64,000 nt of DNA, from sequence record NC_054930.1; one strand, given 5' to 3'. Source of the stretch: Escherichia phage PP01. How positions within the stretch are numbered: the stretch's first letter is position 1; each line of letters opens with the position of its first letter. Made by a program: the position numbers and the translations under genes. Positions 2,991-32,116 of the stretch are shown piece by piece. The notes under the pieces are model-generated. The model searched no databases and had not been told where the DNA came from. It saw only the letters and a list, made by a program, of their open reading frames with translations.

Positions 2991-3584
2991 TTATTTCAGA
3001 GAATTAATATATTCCTGAACATCGGCAGAGGTAGTTTCAACCCCAGAAATATTACCATTAAAGGTTTCAACTCGAGCAAGGGTATCTTCAATATCAACCT
3101 TAGTCAGTGCTGCAATTTCAACTACATCATCAGCAGTACTAATTCCAAGGGCATTTGCTGCGCGAGTTTCACGGATATATTCCAATTTAACTGCGAGTTC
3201 TTGACGAGCATCATCTAACTCAACTACTTTCTTGGCGATTTCAATTCGCATTTCAGCATAACCGTCAGCTTTAGTAGTCAACTGCTCAGCTGTTCGACGA
3301 TATAGTAAACCGAGTTTAGCATGCATTGTTACATCTTGACCTTCGGAAAGAAGTTTACGAATTTCACGCTCTTTTGATTCGGCTTGTCGATTCTTTTCGA
3401 CAATAAGTTCACGAATACGCTTTTCTTCATTAATAGATTTAACGGAAGCAGTTTTTAGATCTTTAATCTTATCAAGTAGTTTTGCTGCCGCAGCAGTATA
3501 CTGTTCTTCAACAGATAGATTTTTAGCCATAGCAGAACCAAGTTTAGTGCGAATAAACTCAACAATTTTCTTCAGTGTGTTCAT
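2991..3584 (-). CDS. Hypothetical coiled-coil protein (possibly PspA/IM30-like)
   Basis: 197 aa, heptad-like charged/Leu-rich sequence ([14 protein letters not shown]...[20 protein letters not shown]); PspA resemblance is by eye only. Confidence 0.5.
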
Positions 3585-3640
3585 AGTATTTCCTTAGGTT
3601 GGTATAATTAGATAATATCACGTTTTAATAGATTGTAAAC

Positions 3641-3976
3641 TTATTCTTCGTCTAGCTCGTCGATAAAGACGTTGATGGCCTCGATAACGGCATCATTGAT
3701 AGCCAATAAAATAAAATCATCGTCAGTACCTTTAGAAGATTCTAAAGCATTGATATATGCTTGGTTGGCGAGTTCCCAAGCCTTTTTAAAATAAGGAGCT
3801 TCATCATCAGGACAAATATCCCGCACGCCTTCAAAGATACGTTTGGCATAATCTAACACCCATTGTACAGGCATGTTTTGAGAACGTTCGTTAAACTCTT
3901 TAAAGTCCTTAGATTCAAAAAGCTCTTCAGGATAATTATTTCTATTACAAAAAGCTTTACTAAAGTTACGTTTCAT
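3641..3976 (-). CDS. Hypothetical protein
   Basis: 111 aa ORF, acidic C-terminus. Confidence 0.5.
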   Translation of the reverse strand: MKRNFSKAFCNRNNYPEELFESKDFKEFNERSQNMPVQWVLDYAKRIFEGVRDICPDDEAPYFKKAWELANQAYINALESSKGTDDDFILLAINDAVIEAINVFIDELDEE

Positions 3977-4032
3977 AATGTTTTCCTCATTTGTATAGGC
4001 TCATAATATCTCAATCATGAGCCTATGTAAAC

Positions 4033-4308
4033 TTATTTCATATTATTGAAATATTCTTCTGCGATTTCGTCGTTATCATGGTAAACTTTAGAAGACAGTT
4101 TAACATAACTTTCAGCAGTGAACATGTTAATCACAACCTTTACAGTATACCACTGACCGTCTTCATTGCCCATTACCGCATAAGTTTCAAACATCGGATG
4201 ATCAGGACCGATAACTTTAATATCATTCACTGTACGACCGAAATCTTCTGAAACACATTTCATAAAGAAGTTGAACAGTTCGCCGTAATTATCCATTTCG
4301 TTCTCCAA
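4033..4308 (-). CDS. Hypothetical protein
   Basis: 91 aa ORF directly downstream of an early-promoter copy. Confidence 0.5.
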   Translation of the reverse strand: MENEMDNYGELFNFFMKCVSEDFGRTVNDIKVIGPDHPMFETYAVMGNEDGQWYTVKVVINMFTAESYVKLSSKVYHDNDEIAEEYFNNMK

Positions 4309-4339
4309 GTTGTTTTCTGTATCAGTAGTTGATAGTTGT

Positions 4340-4369
4340 ATAGTACCATGGAAGAACAGGGATGTAAAC
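4340..4369 (-). promoter_or_regulatory. T4 early-type promoter (GTTTAC -35, TGgTACTAT -10)
   Basis: Minus-strand tttcacaaaactGTTTAC-N18-TACTAT, about 30 nt upstream of the ORF starting at 4308. Confidence 0.4.
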
Positions 4370-4501
4370 AGTTTTGTGAAAAATTTTTAAAAAATTTTAG
4401 AGAATTCTAGGGTCAGGAGGGGCAATTAAAAGGTAGGATAATATATTATAAAGGGTATAAACCAAATGATGCCTAGAGAGGCCCGGAAAGGCCTAGATAC
4501 C

Positions 4502-4529
4502 AAAAAGCCCCAACCTTTCGGCTGGGGCT
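4502..4529 (-). terminator. Rho-independent terminator (copy 1 of a duplicated 30-nt element)
   Basis: Plus strand aaaaagccccaacctttcggctggggct; on the minus strand a GC hairpin followed by a U-run, immediately after the stop of the 4537..5010 gene. Confidence 0.55.
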
Positions 4530-4536
4530 AAGAATG

Positions 4537-5010
4537 TTATTTGATTTGTTTAGCAGACCAAATGCGGTCTTTAATAATTTTTTGGATGTCTTCAACATAC
4601 TCTAGGTCATGAGCATGTGGATTATCTTTGAAACTATAAGCACGAGCTAGCTTTTGGCCTTCAGTTTTGATTACTAAAAGCTCTTTAAGGATAGCTTCAT
4701 ATCTGGAGATAATTCCTTTAACAATATTTTTTTCTTGTGCAGCTTTAGGATCTGCTTTAGGAGCAGGTTTACCCGAAGCCTTTGCAAAAGCAGCGCCAGT
4801 AGCAACTAGACTTTTCCAGGCCATACTAACCGCATTTCCTGTAAATCCTTCTGCTTTCATGCCGCGAGCAAATTGGAATCGCGATTCGTCAGAAGCATCT
4901 TTATAAGAATATTTACCCGCTGCAATGGCTGCTTTTGCGACAGCTTGAATTTCGGTGCTAGATGCTTCATTTAACACCGCTTCATTTAAAAATTGAGTAT
5001 ATGATTTCAT
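4537..5010 (-). CDS. Internal-protein-like gene with a variant capsid-targeting sequence (158 aa)
   Basis: The track ORF (to 5187) runs through a terminator; the realistic start is ATG at 5008-5010 giving MKSYTQFLNEA, similar to the CTS MKTYQEFIAE with the L-x-E cleavage motif; own late promoter upstream; Ala/Lys-rich body. Confidence 0.55.
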   Translation of the reverse strand: MKSYTQFLNEAVLNEASSTEIQAVAKAAIAAGKYSYKDASDESRFQFARGMKAEGFTGNAVSMAWKSLVATGAAFAKASGKPAPKADPKAAQEKNIVKGIISRYEAILKELLVIKTEGQKLARAYSFKDNPHAHDLEYVEDIQKIIKDRIWSAKQIK

Positions 5011-5048
5011 CTTATTTCCTGTTTTAATTCGTGGATTTAATATACTAA

Positions 5049-5056
5049 TATTTATA
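5049..5056 (-). promoter_or_regulatory. T4 late promoter TATAAATA
   Basis: Plus-strand tatttata; on the coding strand TATAAATA about 39 nt upstream of the ATG at 5010. Confidence 0.5.
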
Positions 5057-5058
5057 CT

Positions 5059-5087
5059 AAAAAGCCCCAACCTTTCGGTCGGGGCTA
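5059..5087 (-). terminator. Rho-independent terminator (copy 2 of the duplicated 30-nt element)
   Basis: aaaaagccccaacctttcggtcggggct, near-identical to 4502-4529; lies downstream of the stable-RNA region. Confidence 0.55.
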
Positions 5088-5089
5088 AG

Positions 5090-5400
5090 CCTTGCGGCAA
5101 CCTTGTCGGGGTTCCACCTGCTAAGGCAAGTGTTTGTACGAAACGCCGGGATTCGAACCCGGTTATTAAGTAGTTGACGCTACTCAATATTTTTAAAAGG
5201 CCATATCTCGACCATATCCGAACGTTCCGTCAAAAACGCTACTCGGCTTATGGCAAAGATATTTCCTCGAATCGATAATTCGGTGCGCCGTTTCTGCTGT
5301 GATATAAGGGGGCATTAACAAAACATAAAGATTTATTAATGCCAGTCCTTACCCAGGGAACATCAGTCCGACGACTTACCGGTAGCGACCCGGTTTCTTG
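5090..5400 (-). ncRNA. Candidate small stable RNA gene(s), T4 RNA C / RNA D-like region
   Basis: No ORF; contains a tRNA-like T-arm (ccgggTTCGAATcccgg, reverse strand) and several stems; position next to tRNA-Arg matches where T4 encodes its two stable RNAs; boundaries not resolved. Confidence 0.3.
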
Positions 5401-5402
5401 TT

Positions 5403-5479
<77 letters not shown>

Positions 5480-5482
5480 TAA

Positions 5483-6148
5483 TTAAAATTTCATTTTTCG
5501 ACCTTTAAACCATCCTTCTGGAATTGGGTCAGTTTTCTTAATACGTTTAGAAACTTTTTCATCCAATGAATGAATCCACATCATGCCAAATTGGGAATTC
5601 TTTTCACCTTGTTGGTGTTTATTTCTGGCGTGAGATTCTTTCATTTTATTAATAGTTTCAGGAGTATGGGTCTTACCCAAGAAAGATTTAGTATTTAAAA
5701 ATTTCTCTCTATACTTAGGATTATCCCAAAGCTGTTTAAACCTTTCTGAACCCATTTTACGATATTTTTCTTTAAGGTCTGGGTCGTTCTCAAATCTGGT
5801 TTTAAAAGCGGCAGCTCCTTTTAAGGAAGCTTCTTTCTTTTTATCCAAATATTCTTTAGTGTTTAAATGGTCCCAACCACCTTCACCACCTAATTTCAGA
5901 TTATAAACATCAGGGCGCTTTAAAAACTCTTCAGTCACAATATTCTTTTCTGACTCAAACATAGAGGTTTTATCGTCAAAGAACTCTAATATTTCTTTAG
6001 AAAAATTTTCTATACCATATTTATCTTGGGCTCTTTTTAATAATTTACCAGAACCCATATATCCATCATCTAAATTTTCGGTAGAATGAGCGCCTATATA
6101 GATTTTATTATTAATTTTATTTGTTATTTTATAAATGTAATGGAACAT
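5483..6148 (-). CDS. segB: GIY-YIG homing endonuclease SegB
   Basis: 221 aa; N-terminal GIY-YIG module (YIYKITNKINNKIYIGAHS...GYMGSG); embedded in the tRNA cluster as T4 segB is. Confidence 0.88.
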   Translation of the reverse strand: MFHYIYKITNKINNKIYIGAHSTENLDDGYMGSGKLLKRAQDKYGIENFSKEILEFFDDKTSMFESEKNIVTEEFLKRPDVYNLKLGGEGGWDHLNTKEYLDKKKEASLKGAAAFKTRFENDPDLKEKYRKMGSERFKQLWDNPKYREKFLNTKSFLGKTHTPETINKMKESHARNKHQQGEKNSQFGMMWIHSLDEKVSKRIKKTDPIPEGWFKGRKMKF

Positions 6149-6189
6149 AAATATCTCCTATTTCTAAGAGTATTTATGTTCCCAAAATA

Positions 6190-6261
6190 TGGCCCTGGGT
6201 GGAATTGAACCACCATCTGGCGATTATGAGTCGCTTGCTTGAACCTTCCAGCTACAGGGCC
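6190..6261 (-). tRNA. tRNA with CAU anticodon (T4 tRNA-Ile type)
   Basis: Acceptor GGCCCTG/CAGGGCC, T-arm GGTGG-TTCAATT-CCACC, anticodon loop CTCATAA; T4 encodes a CAU-anticodon tRNA-Ile that is modified to read AUA. Confidence 0.75.
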
Positions 6262-6267
6262 TTGATA

Positions 6268-6340
6268 TGCTGATTGACGGAATCGAACCGCCGACGTCCT
6301 CATTACAAGTGAGGTGCTCTACCTACTGAGCTAAATCAGC
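6268..6340 (-). tRNA. tRNA-Thr (UGU)
   Basis: Canonical cloverleaf GCTGATT-TA-GCTC..GAGC-CCTCA-CTTGTAA-TGAGG..GGCGG-TTCGATT-CCGTC-AATCAGC. Confidence 0.85.
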
Positions 6341-6347
6341 GAAATTA

Positions 6348-6434
6348 CGGAGGCGATAGGATTTGAACCTATGAGTCGCCGGAGCGACTGCCGGTTTTCA
6401 AGACCGGTGCATTAAACCACTCTGCCACGCCTCC
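6348..6434 (-). tRNA. tRNA-Ser (UGA), long variable arm
   Basis: GGAGGCG acceptor, anticodon loop CTTGAAA, extended variable arm, T-arm CATAGG-TTCAAAT-CCTAT. Confidence 0.85.
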
Positions 6435-6436
6435 AG

Positions 6437-6510
6437 TCTCCGCGGCAGGATTTGAACCTGCGACATTCTGCTCCCAAAGCAGACGCTCTACCAAACTGAG
6501 CTACACGGAG
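6437..6510 (-). tRNA. tRNA-Pro (UGG)
   Basis: CTCCGTG-TA-GCTC-AGTTTGGTA-GAGC-TCTGC-TTTGGGA-GCAGA..GCAGG-TTCAAAT-CCTGC-CGCGGAG. Confidence 0.88.
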
Positions 6511-6522
6511 TAAATTAAATTT

Positions 6523-6594
<72 letters not shown>

Positions 6595-6600
6595 AAACTT

Positions 6601-6687
6601 TGGTACGAGAAGTGGGACTCGAACCCACAAGGAAATCATTCCGCAGCATTTTAAGTGCTGTGCCTTTACCAATTTGACCATTCTCGC
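6601..6687 (-). tRNA. tRNA-Leu (UAA), long variable arm, CCA encoded
   Basis: GCGAGAA acceptor, anticodon loop CTTAAAA, variable arm CGGAATGATTTCCTT, T-arm GTGGG-TTCGAGT-CCCAC, 3' ACCA. Confidence 0.85.
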
Positions 6688-6688
6688 G

Positions 6689-6761
6689 CTGGGAATAAAG
6701 GACTCGAACCTTTGCATCCTGGAATCAAAATCCAGTGCCTTACCAACTTGGCTAATTCCCA
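6689..6761 (-). tRNA. tRNA-Gln (UUG)
   Basis: TGGGAAT-TA-GCCA..GGCA-CTGGA-TTTTGAT-TCCAG..AAAGG-TTCGAGT-CCTTT-ATTCCCA; first in the T4 order Gln-Leu-Gly-Pro-Ser-Thr-Ile-Arg. Confidence 0.85.
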
Positions 6762-6858
6762 ATTATTAACAAAGGCTCTCTAACAAGAACCCTTGATGAT
6801 AGAGGGTATTAATCAGTGCGGTATGAGTTAATAATAACAAATAATTCTTAAAGCATAT

Positions 6859-7146
6859 TTACCATTTATGATAATACATATTTACGATGCATTCAAGACC
6901 TAAAGGATTCTTGAAAATATCATATTCAAGAGGACCTTTTTCCGTTTCAATAAAGAAATCAAAGTTAACTGTATTAAATTTACGGTCTTCCTTCACTAAT
7001 TTAACTTGAGAAGATGAACGGTCAATGTAAACCTTTTCAACTTCAAAACATGTTAAAACGCCATAATCATCAATCAAGGCTTTAGCCGCGTCTTGATCAT
7101 ATTTATATCCATTTTCAATGGACGATACTTTAGCATAAAGAATCAT
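6859..7146 (-). CDS. Hypothetical protein
   Basis: 95 aa ORF; its ATG sits 3 nt after the stop of the upstream frameshifted ORF. Confidence 0.5.
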   Translation of the reverse strand: MILYAKVSSIENGYKYDQDAAKALIDDYGVLTCFEVEKVYIDRSSSQVKLVKEDRKFNTVNFDFFIETEKGPLEYDIFKNPLGLECIVNMYYHKW

Positions 7147-7148
7147 TA

Positions 7149-7558
7149 TCAGCCTTCATCAACAATAGTATGAGTGTGGGCATTTACGATTTGCCACCAG
7201 TCGAAACGATTGGAACCATAATCTGGTTTATTTTCATTTTCTTTAATGATATCACGCAGTTTATCTTCTGTTTCAGCATACGCAATTAAATCATCATATC
7301 CGCCACAAGGATAATAATTATCACCTGCGAATAAAAGAAAATTTACCTTAGATGGATTTACGTAATAATGGTCTTTAGGATATTTAGTTCCTCTCCAATC
7401 AGTTACTTCAACATAACGGTAAGAAAATCCATTTTTACTTTCAATCCAACTCCACGCTTCAAAAGGAGTATTAAAAACTTTATCAGGTATTAAATTACCT
7501 TCAAAATGAGAAGGATTTGCATAATCCCAGCATAAACATAGTATTCGTTAATACTCAT
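7149..7558 (-). pseudogene. Frameshifted ORF (about 135 codons), absent from the ATG-based track
   Basis: ATG at 7556-7558 opens a frame that stops after 22 codons; a different frame continues stop-free for about 130 codons (WDYANPSHFEG...GDNYYPCGGYDDLIAY...WWQIVNAHTHTIVDEG) to a stop at 7149-7151 but has no ATG/GTG/TTG start. Confidence 0.4.
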
Positions 7559-7744
7559 CTATTCACCTTTAGAAATTTTATCCATAACGATAGCGATTAA
7601 ACCAATTAAAAATGCTACTACAAGCGAAAACACATTTTCTGCTGTAGTTAATAATCCGCATATAAATCCAACAAACATTGAAAAACTAAAAGCGGAAGCA
7701 GAAATTGCAATAGCAACATTTCGAATTAATTCACAACGTTTCAT
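7559..7744 (-). CDS. Small hydrophobic membrane protein (61 aa)
   Basis: Start taken at the internal ATG (7742-7744) preceded by GAGGAG; the track ORF begins at a TTG; sequence MKRCELIRNVAIAISASAFSFSMFVGFICGLL is strongly hydrophobic. Confidence 0.45.
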   Translation of the reverse strand: MKRCELIRNVAIAISASAFSFSMFVGFICGLLTTAENVFSLVVAFLIGLIAIVMDKISKGE

Positions 7745-7772
7745 TTTATTCTCCTCAGTAGTTGATAGGGTA

Positions 7773-7802
7773 ATAGTATCACTACTAAAACCCCGTGTAA
7801 AC
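7773..7802 (-). promoter_or_regulatory. T4 early-type promoter copy (GTTTAC -35, gTGaTACTAT -10) overlapping an inverted repeat
   Basis: Minus strand aaataatttcacaaagttGTTTACacgggg...gtgaTACTAT; 49-nt block shared with the copy at 8104-8133. Confidence 0.4.
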
Positions 7803-7814
7803 AACTTTGTGAAA

Positions 7815-8072
7815 TTATTTTAAATCTTCTAATCGTTTCTTCATCTTAGAACCATTTTTAGCGATTTCTCCTGCGTCAGAGCATAATGCTAAAAGTGCTT
7901 TAACTTTAGTTTGGTCTCCTTTAAAAGACGAAGGATCGACTGCAGCAGCAAGTTCTTTAATACGAGAGAAAAGACGCTCAGCTTCAGCTAAAGCCATTCC
8001 AAGCTTTACTTCCATACCATGAGAAGATTCAGTGATAATAGTTTCTGTAGCAAACTCTTTATAAGTTTTCAT
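7815..8072 (-). CDS. Internal protein I-like (85 aa) with CTS
   Basis: MKTYKEFATE N-terminus (CTS variant); adjacent to 57B as ipI is in T4; the body differs from what I recall of T4 IPI. Confidence 0.65.
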   Translation of the reverse strand: MKTYKEFATETIITESSHGMEVKLGMALAEAERLFSRIKELAAAVDPSSFKGDQTKVKALLALCSDAGEIAKNGSKMKKRLEDLK

Positions 8073-8103
8073 TTTATTTTTCCTAATTAATTTTGATGAG
8101 GTA

Positions 8104-8133
8104 ATAGTATCACTACCTCATCAGTGTGTAAAC
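8104..8133 (-). promoter_or_regulatory. T4 early-type promoter copy (GTTTAC -35, gTGaTACTAT -10)
   Basis: Same 49-nt block as at 7773-7802; hairpin ctgatgaggta...tacctcatcag overlaps the -10; drives the ipI-like gene. Confidence 0.4.
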
Positions 8134-8145
8134 AACTTTGTGAAA

Positions 8146-8842
<697 letters not shown>

Positions 8843-24181: not shown

Positions 24182-25734
24182 GTAATAATACATATCAGCA
24201 CGTATCAAATGAATCAAAATATGTTAAATTCGATCCAGTGGGATCGAATTTTCCTGACACTGTTACGACGGTGCAGTCTGCATTATCAAAAATAAGTAAT
24301 ATCGGCGTAAATGGTATTCCTGATGCATCTATGGAAGTTAAAGGAATAGCAATGATTGCATCAGAGCAAGAGGTTTTAGATGGAACAAATAATTCTAAAA
24401 TCGTTACACCAGCTACATTAGCAACAAGATTATTGTATCCAAATGCTACTGAAACTAAATATGGTTTAACGCGTTATTCAACAAATGAAGAAACATTAGA
24501 AGGCTCAGATAATAATTCATCAATAACACCGCAAAAACTGAAATACCATACTGATGATGTGTTCCAAAATAGATATTCGTCTGAGTCGTCAAACGGGGTT
24601 ATTAAAATATCATCTACACCTGCAGCTTTGGCTGGAGTTGATGATACTACGGCAATGACTCCATTAAAAACCCAAAAACTTGCAATAAAATTAATTTCAC
24701 AAATAGCTCCTTCCGAAGATACTGCATCAGAATCTGTGAGAGGTGTAGTTCAATTATCTACTGTTGCGCAAACTCGTCAAGGAACTCTCCGCGAAGGATA
24801 TGCAATTTCTCCGTATACCTTTATGAATTCTGTTGCAACACAAGAATATAAGGGTGTTATACGTTTAGGAACACAATCGGAAATTAACAGTAATTTAGGA
24901 GATGTTGCAGTAACAGGTGAAACACTAAATGGTCGAGGAGCTACTGGTTCTATGCGTGGAGTCGTCAAATTAACGACGCAGGCCGGTATTGCCCCCGAAG
25001 GTGATAGCTCTGGAGCATTAGCATGGAACGCAGATGTAATTAATACTCGCGGTGGACAAACTATTAATGGTTCTTTAAATTTAGATCATCTTACAGCAAA
25101 CGGAATCTGGTCGCGCGGCGGAATGTGGAAAAATGGCGATCAACCTGTTGCCACTGAAAGATATGCGTCAGAAAGGGTTCCAGTTGGAACTATTATGATG
25201 TTTGCGGGAGATTCAGCACCTCCGGGTTGGATTATGTGCCACGGTGGAACAGTGTCAGGAGATCAATATCCTGATTATAGAAACACAGTTGGAACAAGAT
25301 TTGGTGGTGATTGGAATAATCCAGGGATTCCTGATATGCGAGGTCTTTTCGTCAGAGGAGCGGGCACCGGCGGTCATATTTTAAATCAACGAGGACAAGA
25401 TGGTTATGGGAAGGATAGACTTGGTGTAGGATGTGATGGAATGCATGTTGGCGGTGTTCAAGCACAACAAATATCATACCATAAACATGCTGGTGCCTGG
25501 GGTGAAAATGGAAATAACAGAGGTTATGCACCGTTTGGCGCATCTAATGGCAGTGGATATTTAGGCAATGGTAGAAGCGCCGACTGGGACAACCATTTGT
25601 TCTTTACTAATGACGGATTTGAAATGGGTGGTCCTCGTGACTCGTTCGGCACGTTAAATCGCGAAGGATTAATTGGTTATGAAACTAGACCATGGAATAT
25701 ATCATTAAACTATATTATTAAAATTCATTACTAA
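24178..25734 (+). CDS. 12: gp12 short tail fibre
   Basis: 518 aa (T4 527); Gly/Ser/Thr-rich fibre repeats and a His-rich C-terminal receptor-binding region. Confidence 0.92.
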
Positions 25735-25743
25735 GGATTACAA

Positions 25744-27201
25744 ATGATTGAATTAAAAGATTTACCTTTTGTTGATAGCGTTCCTGGCGAAGGTCAGGAA
25801 CGTATTTCATGGATTAAAAATGGTGAAGAAATACTAGGAGCTAGTACTAAGTATGGAAACGATGGATCAATGAATAGACCAACTGTTTCCGTGTTTAAAA
25901 ATGTCGAAGTTCTTGATGAAAATGTGGGAATTCTTAAAACTGCCGTTGAAACATCACAGGAAGATATTAAAACAATTCAAGGCATTTTAGATGTATCAGG
26001 AGATATAGAAGCACTATCGCAGATCAGCGTTAATAAAAATGATATATCAAATTTAAAGACACTCACAAATGAACACACTGATATATTAAATGGTACAAAT
26101 ACTACAGTTGATCGCATTCTTTCTGATATAGGTCCATTTAATGAGCAAGCAAATTCAGTTTATAGAACGATTAGAAATGATTTGCTGTGGATTAAAAGGG
26201 AATTAGGACAATATGCTGGACAAGATATTAATGGTCTTCCTGTTGTAGGAAATAGCAGCACGGGAATGAAGCATCGTATCATTAATAATACAGATGCTAT
26301 AACTTCCCAAGGAATACGTCTAAGCGATTTGGAAGAAAAATTTATTGAATCTGATGTAGGTTCACTGACAATTGAAGTCGGAAATCTTAGACAAGAACTT
26401 GGACAAAGACCATCTTCATTCAGTGAAAGCATATATTCACGTGTGCATAATTTAGATCAATCTCAGATTAATCTTAGTTCCGAAATTAAATCTATCAAAA
26501 CTTCTATTGGATATCCAGGAAATACTTCAATAATCACAGATGTCAATGTCAATAGTCAAGAAATTTCAGCTTTAAATGATGAACTAAATAAAAGCGGAGG
26601 TGTTAAACAACGATTAACTATTATTGAAACATCGATTGGTTCAGATGATATTCCTTCTAGTATTAAAGGTCGAATTAAAGATAATACTACTTCTATTGAA
26701 TCTTTAAATGGAATTGTAGGTGAAAACACCTCGTCTGGTTTAAGAGCCAATGTTTCATGGTTAAACCAAATTGTTGGAACTGATTCTAGCGGTGGACAAC
26801 CTTCTCCTCCTGGGTCTCTTTTAAATAGAATTTCAACAGTTGAAACTTCCGTTAATAGATTGAACAATGATGTTCAAAACTTACAAGTTGAAATTGGTAA
26901 TAACAATTCCGGAATTAAAGGACAAGTTGTAGCATTAAATAAATTAGTAAATGGAACAAATCCAAATGGCTCAACTGTCGAAGAACGCGGATTGACTAAT
27001 TCAATAAAAGCTAATGAGACTAACATTGCTTCAATTAATCAAGAGATTCGTAGCATTAAAAGCGATGTATCTTCATTACAAAGGGATGTCCAGACTTTAC
27101 AGGAAGCCGGTTATATTCCTGAAGCTCCAAGAGATGGGCAAGCTTACGTTCGTAAAGACGGCGAATGGGTATTGCTTTCTACCTTTTTATCACCAGCATA
27201 A
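25744..27201 (+). CDS. wac: Fibritin (whisker antigen control)
   Basis: 485 aa; coiled-coil repeats and C-terminal foldon [27 protein letters not shown]. Confidence 0.95.

Positions 27202-28975: not shown

Positions 28976-32116
<3,141 letters not shown>

Follow-up and report, generated by a model that had tools for sequence, protein, structure and literature searches.

The 64,000-nt stretch of Escherichia phage PP01 DNA analysed here (sequence record NC_054930.1), hereafter referred to as the window, is T4-like phage DNA (Tequatrovirus), and the gene map of its first 10 kb agrees with the map of T4, with every gene on the minus strand. Between e.8 and rnaC, the window contains a gene whose product starts with a leader resembling the capsid targeting sequence (CTS) of the T4 internal proteins (Ips), and this gene is enclosed by two nearly identical intrinsic terminators (Table 1). 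The present text deals with this gene and with the probable membership of its product in the T4 internal-protein class. A preliminary description, made from the letters of the window alone, had pointed out the CTS-like gene between duplicated terminators; this observation is confirmed, and all of the sequence features described there were found at their positions with small corrections only. The gene lies where it had been placed, and its length is corrected from 158 aa to 157 aa followed by a stop codon. The start of the open reading frame (ORF) reads MKSYTQFLNEAVLNEASS, and the PHROGs profile phrog_2280 matches residues 1–157 at E = 4.6e-59. The predicted mass is 17.2 kDa for the precursor and 15.5–16.0 kDa for the mature form, whose pI is ~9.5. 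The gene is under purifying selection, with a ratio of nonsynonymous to synonymous substitution rates (dN/dS) of 0.03–0.11, in which dS is up to 0.56 and dN ≤0.025, against the five orthologs of RB33, fD1, fPS-2, Phaginator and 310Ecol104PP. A spurious or non-coding ORF was ruled out by these ratios and by mass-spectrometry peptides of the fD1 ortholog.

Regarding transcription, the T4-type late promoter motif TATAAATA, which occurs 23 times in the window against 10.0 ± 3.4 expected copies, lies 38 nt from the ATG. The exact motif directly follows a terminator U-tract, 35–38 nt 5′ of the ATG, both in the window and in all six other Tequatrovirus loci with which it was compared. The same junction of terminator and TATAAATA is also present in Klebsiella phage KP1 (Jiaodavirus), and in Yersinia phage fHe-Yen9-01 (Tegunavirus) a terminator and TATAAATA are located 5′ of a tandem pair of family members. 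Just 48 nt separate the stem of the upstream terminator from the start codon, too few to accommodate an early or middle promoter, and expression of the gene therefore appears to be late only. A terminator scan of positions 3500–8500 returned three terminator-like sites only, two of which are the minus-strand hairpins flanking the gene. Both hairpins have a 10-bp stem, a GAAA loop and a U5 tail, with a z-score of about −4.1 relative to shuffled sequences, 0 of 200 of which folded as well. The upstream hairpin is the counterpart of the sole terminator-type hairpin in the rnaC-e.8 spacer of T4, and the downstream hairpin is predicted to end the late transcript before the early promoter-like site of e.8 (4368–4340), which is ~130 nt from the downstream repeat copy. 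The hairpins form the core of a 36-nt direct repeat whose two copies are 92% identical, and the 28-nt repeat core occurs exactly twice in the 64-kb window, compared with 0 expected occurrences. The gene's own late promoter and the near-identical flanking terminators, as put forward in the preliminary description, are real and are conserved in the orthologs. An imperfect GC-rich inverted repeat (GCCTAGAGAGGCCCGGAAAGGCCTAGA) is also present just 3′ of the left terminator (4460–4500) and is kept, with substitutions, in T4 and RB33.

Table 1. Features of the CTS-like gene and its surroundings in the window (slashes in peptide sequences mark candidate cleavage points).
Feature	Position	Strand	Details
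Protein-coding gene, phrog_2280 member	4537–5010	minus	ORF and phrog_2280 profile match
Shine-Dalgarno sequence AGGA	5017–5020	minus	6 nt 5′ of the ATG; identical in all Tequatrovirus orthologs compared
CTS-like leader MKSYTQFLNE, codons 1–10	4981–5010	minus	ends in candidate prohead-protease site L-N-E/A
15-nt tandem duplication	4964–4989	minus	makes second L-N-E/A site (residues 13–15); repeat D6, 11/11 identical, spacing 15
A7 homopolymer, codons 93–95 (T7 on the plus strand)	4727–4733	minus	boundary of Lys/Pro/Ala linker and C-terminal helical half
T4-type late promoter motif TATAAATA	5049–5056	minus	directly after U-tract of upstream terminator
Upstream intrinsic terminator	5058–5086	minus	stem-loop 5063–5086, U-tract 5058–5062; −20.3 kcal/mol
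Downstream intrinsic terminator	4501–4529	minus	stem-loop 4506–4529, U-tract 4501–4505; −20.6 kcal/mol
Direct repeat, left 36-nt copy	4497–4532	unstranded	bounds the 557-bp presence/absence unit
Direct repeat, right 36-nt copy	5054–5089	unstranded	bounds the 557-bp presence/absence unit
Diagnostic N-terminal peptides of the protein			predicted; uncleaved, SYTQFLNEAVLNEASSTEIQAVAK; processed (semi-tryptic), ASSTEIQAVAK or AVLNEASSTEIQAVAK
Two canonical internal-protein ORFs	..244 and 261–578	minus	
e lysozyme	667–1161	minus	
nudE and e.x genes, up to e.8	e.8, 4033–4308	minus	
rnaC/rnaD and tRNA-Arg	tRNA-Arg, 5403–5479	minus	between the CTS-like gene and segB
segB	5483–6148	minus	
Seven tRNAs	6190–6761	minus	
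Ip5-like ORF	7815–8072	minus	
57B	8146–8601	minus	

The N-terminus of the protein reads MKSYTQFLNE/AVLNE/ASS, and the residues kept in its leader are M1, K2, Y4, F7, L8 and E10. According to a review of the Mullaney-Black experiments, CTS targeting depends mainly on residues 4 and 7, and processing on residues 8 and 10 (PMC9026906). At the sequence level, the leader possesses the aromatic residue at position 4 (Y4) and the Phe at position 7 that direct targeting, as well as two matches to the pattern (L/I)-x-E followed by a small residue, L8-N-E10/A and L13-N-E15/A. An aromatic residue at position 4 and F7 are present in all family variants; these leaders include MKSYAQFLNE, MKTYNEFLNE, MKTYNEFLMTE, MKSYAEFLTE, MLEYSEFLKE, MLKFNEFLAE and MKFKEFLAE. 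The functionally important positions are fixed in the family while other positions drift, and variants of the MKTYNEFLNE and MKSYAEFLTE type bridge this leader to the canonical MKTYQEFIAE. In fHe-Yen9-01, the homologs of IPII and IPIII, which are annotated as internal virion proteins, start with MKSYNEFITE and MKTYNEFIFE, and other small ORFs start with MKSYQEFITE, MKTYIEFINE and MKTYVEFLSE; Ser3 is thus found in an annotated Ip and Leu8 in further CTS-like leaders. A six-frame search with the pattern MK.Y..F..E gave four matches in the window, each at an ORF start, the other three being canonical internal-protein ORFs, and all seven matches in the 49 kb of fHe-Yen9-01 are likewise at ORF starts. 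With a position-specific scoring matrix (PSSM) trained on annotated Ip leaders only, the phrog_2280 family being left out, the leader ranked fourth among 487 ATG starts, directly behind the three canonical internal-protein ORFs. The assignment of the leader as a diverged capsid-targeting sequence with an L-x-E site, in which Y4, F7, L8 and E10 are kept, is upheld.

The duplication that creates the second candidate site is polymorphic among the orthologs, whose N-termini contain FLNE/ASAS (one copy, 152 aa), FLNE-VVLNE/ASAS (two copies, 157 aa) or FLMTE/ASAS (153 aa). Despite these changes in leader length, the E/A-S-[AS] junction is kept in every ortholog, which is what a conserved cleavage site predicts. 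FLTE/A is also the maturation site of gp23 in T4. A third internal L-K-E site is present at residues 108–110 of the protein.

The comparison with T4 and other T-even genomes that the preliminary description had proposed was performed, and T4 differs from the window by a clean 557-bp indel, lacking exactly the gene and one repeat copy; RB33 is arranged like the window. The gene is absent from T4, T2L and PST, and the Krisch-lab annotation of PST is silent on it for this reason. A tblastn search detected it in 510 phage records, with an identity of ≥80% in 395, and the annotations under the matches shown are "hypothetical protein" or blank without exception; the names in NCBI and UniRef are all "hypothetical" or "uncharacterized". 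The members of phrog_2280, which is listed in PHROGs with unknown function, comprise the protein described here, RB69ORF149c-like proteins, Tegunavirus gp153 and gp154, and KP1_122, and they all lie at one syntenic position, with the tRNA/rnaC region on one side and the e.8/e.6 genes on the other. Cassettes of this family are found at the tRNA-proximal site in Tequatrovirus, Mosigvirus, Jiaodavirus and Tegunavirus, preceded by the same terminator and late promoter. The number of cassettes per site is zero in T4, T2L and PST, one in the window, RB33, fD1 and fPS-2, and two in Phaginator and PhAPEC2. In Phaginator, a Shigella phage, three terminators (T1–T3) alternate with the two genes in the order T1, ortholog of the present gene, T2, ORF149c-like gene, T3. 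The downstream terminator of the window combines a T2-type stem with a T3-type flank, and the single terminator of T4 combines a T1 stem with a T3 flank; these combinations fit stepwise loss by recombination between terminators. Therefore, the cassette is most likely an ancient resident of this site and T4 a deletion derivative that arose by terminator recombination; T2L and PST, like T4, are more likely deletion derivatives, although gain of the cassette by terminator recombination, rather than loss, may have occurred. The repeated terminators would act as the recombination points at which the cassette and its paralogous second cassette are lost or gained, T4 representing the empty state. The use of the T4 terminator as a diagnostic hybrid of both copies was considered and given up, because the left copy of fD1 and fPS-2 already has a "right-type" stem; the T4 terminator is consistent with deletion rather than diagnostic of it.

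The preliminary description had regarded the gene as an extra, apparently autonomous cassette inserted at this position. On this view, the unit would be a mobile cassette or moron of recent arrival that brought its promoter and terminators with it. The clean 557-bp indel relative to T4, which has a 36-nt direct repeat at its ends, and the promoter and terminator carried by the unit itself would agree with such an origin. However, homologs with the same architecture are present at the same site in the four genera of Tevenvirinae mentioned above, the gene is represented in about 500 phage records, and the unit contains no transposase or homing endonuclease. Moreover, the repeat is the terminator of the operon itself, is imperfect (92%) and is too long for a target-site duplication, and the combinations of terminator stems and flanks fit serial deletion from a two-cassette array. 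Recent insertion of a mobile unit is consequently regarded as highly improbable.

The second terminator-delimited cassette of Phaginator (937–1503) and PhAPEC2 (3089–3652), located beside the ortholog of the present gene, encodes an RB69ORF149c-like protein with the leader MKTYAEFLTE/AAK, which was detected in 165 phage records, those listed all naming it "hypothetical". The motif upstream of the RB69ORF149c-like gene is GATAAATA or AATAAATA, not TATAAATA.

Evidence of expression comes from Yersinia phage fD1, whose g140 is 97% identical to the protein encoded in the window. In purified fD1 virions, for which the data are public under ProteomeXchange PXD026812, g140 passed a strict threshold of liquid chromatography-tandem mass spectrometry (LC-MS/MS), and the canonical-CTS proteins g129 and g146 were likewise detected. 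Detection of g140 proves expression and fits packaging, but its weight for the latter is modest, with a likelihood ratio of only about 3. The publication on fPS-2/65/90 contains no proteomics. The gene is located outside both recognised Ip loci; a location in one of these is customary for Ips in the literature and does not define them mechanistically. Its distribution is of the non-essential type, since it is variable among close relatives, absent from T4, T2L and PST, and represented in databases by frameshifted alleles as well. Considering the leader, the candidate cleavage sites, the late promoter and the virion data, the protein probably belongs to the T4 internal-protein class as a new member encoded at a third locus. 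The probability that this locus encodes a T4-type internal head protein that is expressed late, targeted by its CTS and processed by gp21 is estimated at roughly 0.6.

Such a protein would be produced and matured as follows. The motifs suggest that transcription takes place only late, from TATAAATA after the terminator of the tRNA/rnaC operon, and that the gene's own terminator insulates it from the early unit of e.8. Judging from its sequence and the published CTS genetics, the leader MKSYTQFLNE would target the precursor into the scaffolding core of the prohead, where the gp21 prohead protease would be expected to cut after L-N-E10 and probably also after L-N-E15. The product of these cuts would be a basic protein of ~15.5 kDa starting with ASSTEIQ, in which a three-helix N-domain is predicted to be connected by a Lys/Pro/Ala linker to a helical hairpin at the C-terminus. 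By analogy with the known internal proteins, the mature protein would stay in the head together with the DNA and then be injected with it.

Several observations weigh against this interpretation. The leader shares only five of ten residues with MKTYQEFIAE, being divergent at positions 3, 5, 6, 8 and 9, and its PSSM score is 12.7 bits, compared with 34–37 for the canonical Ips and 8.7 for the next unrelated ORF; the leader is clearly diverged, and the score by itself does not decide. Besides 672 host proteins, the virion dataset of fD1 contains 113 phage proteins, NudE, DenV and thymidine kinase among them. A 2023 preprint related to the Ip survey of Silas et al. 2025 (PMC12373910) includes, in its accessory-gene library, the ortholog UDP0069, a frameshifted 112-aa allele from ECO4. 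The "capsid targeting site" column is blank for UDP0069 while canonical leaders are flagged, and UDP0069 was part of the 200-gene screen for counter-defence and toxicity and is absent from the text of that paper. This silence is weak negative evidence, since the allele is truncated, was expressed with its leader and was examined in a limited host panel. In addition, effectors in an arms race are less typically conserved between genera or held under strong purifying selection, and packaging, cleavage and injection are predictions from sequence for every member of phrog_2280.

Alternatively, the protein may be a late cytoplasmic, non-packaged protein whose leader is a non-working relic of descent from, or recombination with, ip genes. 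The divergence of the leader at positions 3, 5, 6, 8 and 9, the location of the gene outside the two recognised Ip loci, the lack of a CTS flag from expert curators and the many non-structural proteins in the virion proteome in which the ortholog was detected would all suit a relic. Nevertheless, the positions with experimental importance (4, 7, 8 and 10) are exactly those that are conserved in the family, and the E/AS junction outlasts indels in the leader, where a relic would be expected to decay. The promoter, which appears to be late-only, also argues against a relic, and this explanation is considered unlikely.

Regarding the body of the protein, an AlphaFold2 model was built from a shallow alignment of seven sequences and has a mean pLDDT of 72.7. 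The predicted structure consists of a leader helix (residues 4–9), a disordered stretch (11–15), a well-supported three-helix N-domain (18–75, pLDDT 83–89), a Lys/Pro/Ala linker (76–87) and a helical hairpin (88–154). The preliminary description had noted that homology of the body to a non-packaged protein would speak against an injected protein; this was checked, and none was found in Pfam, PDB sequences, or Foldseek searches of the PDB and BFVD. The Pfam search yielded sub-threshold noise only, the PDB sequence search a single match to a coiled-coil at E = 0.26, Foldseek against the PDB no match below E = 1, and Foldseek against BFVD orthologs only. Comparison with Ip1–3 revealed no similarity past the leader. 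Consequently, the body gives no functional clue from sequence or fold. A scan of 1.8 billion representative proteins returned nine matches, in which the full-length homologs P0011–P0014 and P0016 resemble T4-type phage proteins; P0015, a 2315-aa Thr/Gly-rich repeat protein, was treated as spurious. P0010 (94 aa, on a 2.9-kb contig) carries the final 31 residues of the family (ENPHAHSLEYVEDIQKIIKDRIWSAKQIK) behind an N-terminus that is unrelated (Pfam PF26894) and is the product of either natural domain shuffling or chimeric assembly; P0009 is a similar apparent chimera that involves the N-domain.

The linker and the C-terminal helical half meet at a homopolymer whose length differs between genomes in the databases. 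The tract is A7, in frame, in the window, fPS-2, PhAPEC2 and 310Ecol104PP, A8 in vB_EcoM-G28 and A9 in ECO4. A8 gives a product of 97 aa ending in EKKYC (vB_EcoM-G28), and A9 gives the 112-aa product of ECO4. Clusters of shortened proteins of the +1 type are found on three sequence backgrounds (P0020, P0035 and P0037, with 9, 6 and 3 contigs, respectively). The variation is due either to sequencing errors that recur or to a genuinely hypermutable tract, with loss of the C-terminal helical half as the outcome.

Another explanation is that the protein is a packaged structural or DNA-associated component of the head core, which organises the scaffold core or the condensed DNA, rather than an effector against host defence; in a variant of this idea, it could end up as internal peptides, as gp22, gp67 and gp68 do. 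A pI of ~9.5 for the mature form together with the Lys/Pro/Ala linker, the long helices predicted for the C-terminal half, the third internal L-K-E site (residues 108–110), the strong purifying selection in a family spread over four genera, and the silence of the screen paper on the ortholog that it included are all compatible with a core component. In contrast, the gene is dispensable, as T4, T2L and PST do without it, and frameshifted alleles are common. No similarity to scaffold proteins is apparent, the sole PDB sequence match being the coiled-coil at E = 0.26, and all CTS proteins of known function so far are inhibitors of type IV restriction. A role in the head core is thus quite unlikely.

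An internal protein of the T4 type can be compared with several known systems. According to Silas et al. 2025 (PMC12373910), the three Ips of T4 are encoded at two loci, and the signal sequence has led to the identification of at least 10 Ips. The protein of the window is not among the Ips of that study, and its sequence is absent from the supplements (PMC12373910). In the annotation of RB33, other Ips are noted as Ip4/5/7/9, and the ortholog RB33_134 has no such note. A literature search under locus-tag names yielded nothing relevant. In the literature, the gene has so far figured as an accessory gene without an assigned function rather than as an Ip. The preliminary description had spoken of a new cargo protein; the sequence is already deposited in about 500 phage records, labelled hypothetical, and what is new is the reading as an internal-protein gene. 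The protein resembles T4 Ip1/IPI*, Ip2 and Ip3 and the T-even Ip4–Ip10 in its short leader with an aromatic residue at position 4, Phe at position 7 and (L/I)-x-E at positions 8–10. Like the T-even Ips, it is small and non-essential, has a body without homologs, is variably present among close relatives and maps to the same 8-kb region that surrounds the tRNA cluster. Unlike them, it has a leader of the FL-x-E subtype (MKSYTQFLNE) instead of MKT[YF][QK]EF[ITA]xE, is encoded between e.8 and rnaC instead of at the ipI (57B-proximal) or ipII/ipIII (e/denV-proximal) locus, and is boxed by terminators and apparently expressed late only; its packaging, cleavage and injection are predictions.

Bas37_0260, a CTS protein encoded at the ipI locus, inhibits McrBC (HIDEN-SEQ preprint, 10.1101/2025.11.20.689424). 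Both Bas37_0260 and the present protein are T-even accessory proteins recognised only by their N-terminal signal. They differ in locus, the function of Bas37_0260 has been demonstrated experimentally, and no homology of its body is noted in its preprint. A further comparison is with other phrog_2280 members, the RB69ORF149c-like proteins (for example, Phaginator gp134 and PhAPEC2 gp133) and Tegunavirus gp153/gp154, which belong to the same PHROG (E = 1e-53 to 1e-59), occupy the same locus and are encoded in terminator-delimited cassettes. These members share the organisation of leader, helical domain, Lys/Pro/Ala linker and helical C-terminus, with the leaders MKTYAEFLTE, MLQYNEFLKE and MLEYSEFLKE. 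However, they are distant paralogs, with identities of 24–27% for the ORF149c-like proteins and gp154 and 55% over the N-domain for gp153, and their C-terminal halves differ.

For the cassette, the nearest published mechanism is the PeSL promoter/stem-loop shuffling described by Krisch and co-workers (PMC2839356; Comeau et al. 2014, PMC4122927). As in PeSL cassettes, ORFs that vary within a hyperplastic region have near-identical regulatory stem-loops on both sides, and indels end inside the repeats. Unlike in PeSL cassettes, the repeat is a strong intrinsic terminator, one copy of which is joined to a late promoter, and it contains no early promoter. For this cassette, mini-circle formation or exchange would be hypothetical.

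If the protein is injected, its role in the host comes into question. Ip1, Ip2 and Ip3 are inhibitors of GmrSD enzymes, each with a target of its own, and another five active GmrSD groups were uninhibited by Ip1–10 (PMC12373910). By analogy with Ip1–3 (GmrSD) and Bas37_0260 (McrBC), the most likely role after injection would be neutralisation of a host defence, which is suggested tentatively, and the protein is a plausible candidate for a new injected anti-defence protein. Bas37_0260 shows that uncharacterised CTS proteins can inhibit type IV systems beyond GmrSD. A more far-reaching scenario, which is speculative and somewhat doubtful, is that the e.8-rnaC spacer constitutes a third, unrecognised Ip locus at which phrog_2280 proteins with the FL-x-E CTS subtype, both the present one and the RB69ORF149c-like paralog, would serve as injected inhibitors of defences that lack a known phage counter, for example the five orphan GmrSD groups. 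Mutation of the A7/A8/A9 tract could then switch the C-terminal half on or off.

T-even internal proteins have recently been a productive source of injected anti-restriction factors, and several active GmrSD variants are still without a known inhibitor. Earlier searches leaned on the canonical MKTYQEF leader and on two loci; an internal protein in the e.8-rnaC spacer would add a leader subtype and a locus missed by such searches, in several hundred sequenced phages. Many of the carrier phages are candidates for phage therapy, and the proteins provide a concrete and cheap test set. If the protein is not packaged, it would help to define how far a CTS can drift before failing, which matters for T4 head-packaging vectors.

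Other CTS-like ORFs were also observed. In fHe-Yen9-01, two of them are located outside the annotated Ip genes: an ORF of 52 aa (25644–25802) that starts with MKTYIEFINE and lies just upstream of the phrog_2280 pair, and an ORF of 78 aa (30056–30292) that starts with MKTYVEFLSE and lies between 57A and gene 1. The distribution of CTS-type leaders in T4-like genomes may be broader than a view with two loci implies. In the window, the first of the two canonical ORFs (1–244) is Ip4-like with the leader MKTYQEFITE and is cut by the window edge, and the second (261–578) encodes a 105-aa CTS protein with the leader MKTYQEFIAE that belongs to phrog_3966, "unknown function". The Ip5-like ORF (7815–8072) belongs to phrog_3499, and its leader MKTYKEFATE has Ala at position 8, not Ile or Leu. 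Among RNA genes, Rfam detected tRNAs only at positions 3500–8500, and rnaC and rnaD were identified by alignment to T4 and to the RB33 annotation. The tRNA at 6190–6261 was called as tRNA-Met (CAU) by ARAGORN and is annotated as tRNA-Ile in T4 and as tRNA-Met in RB33; it is presumably a CAU-anticodon tRNA that is read as Ile after modification.

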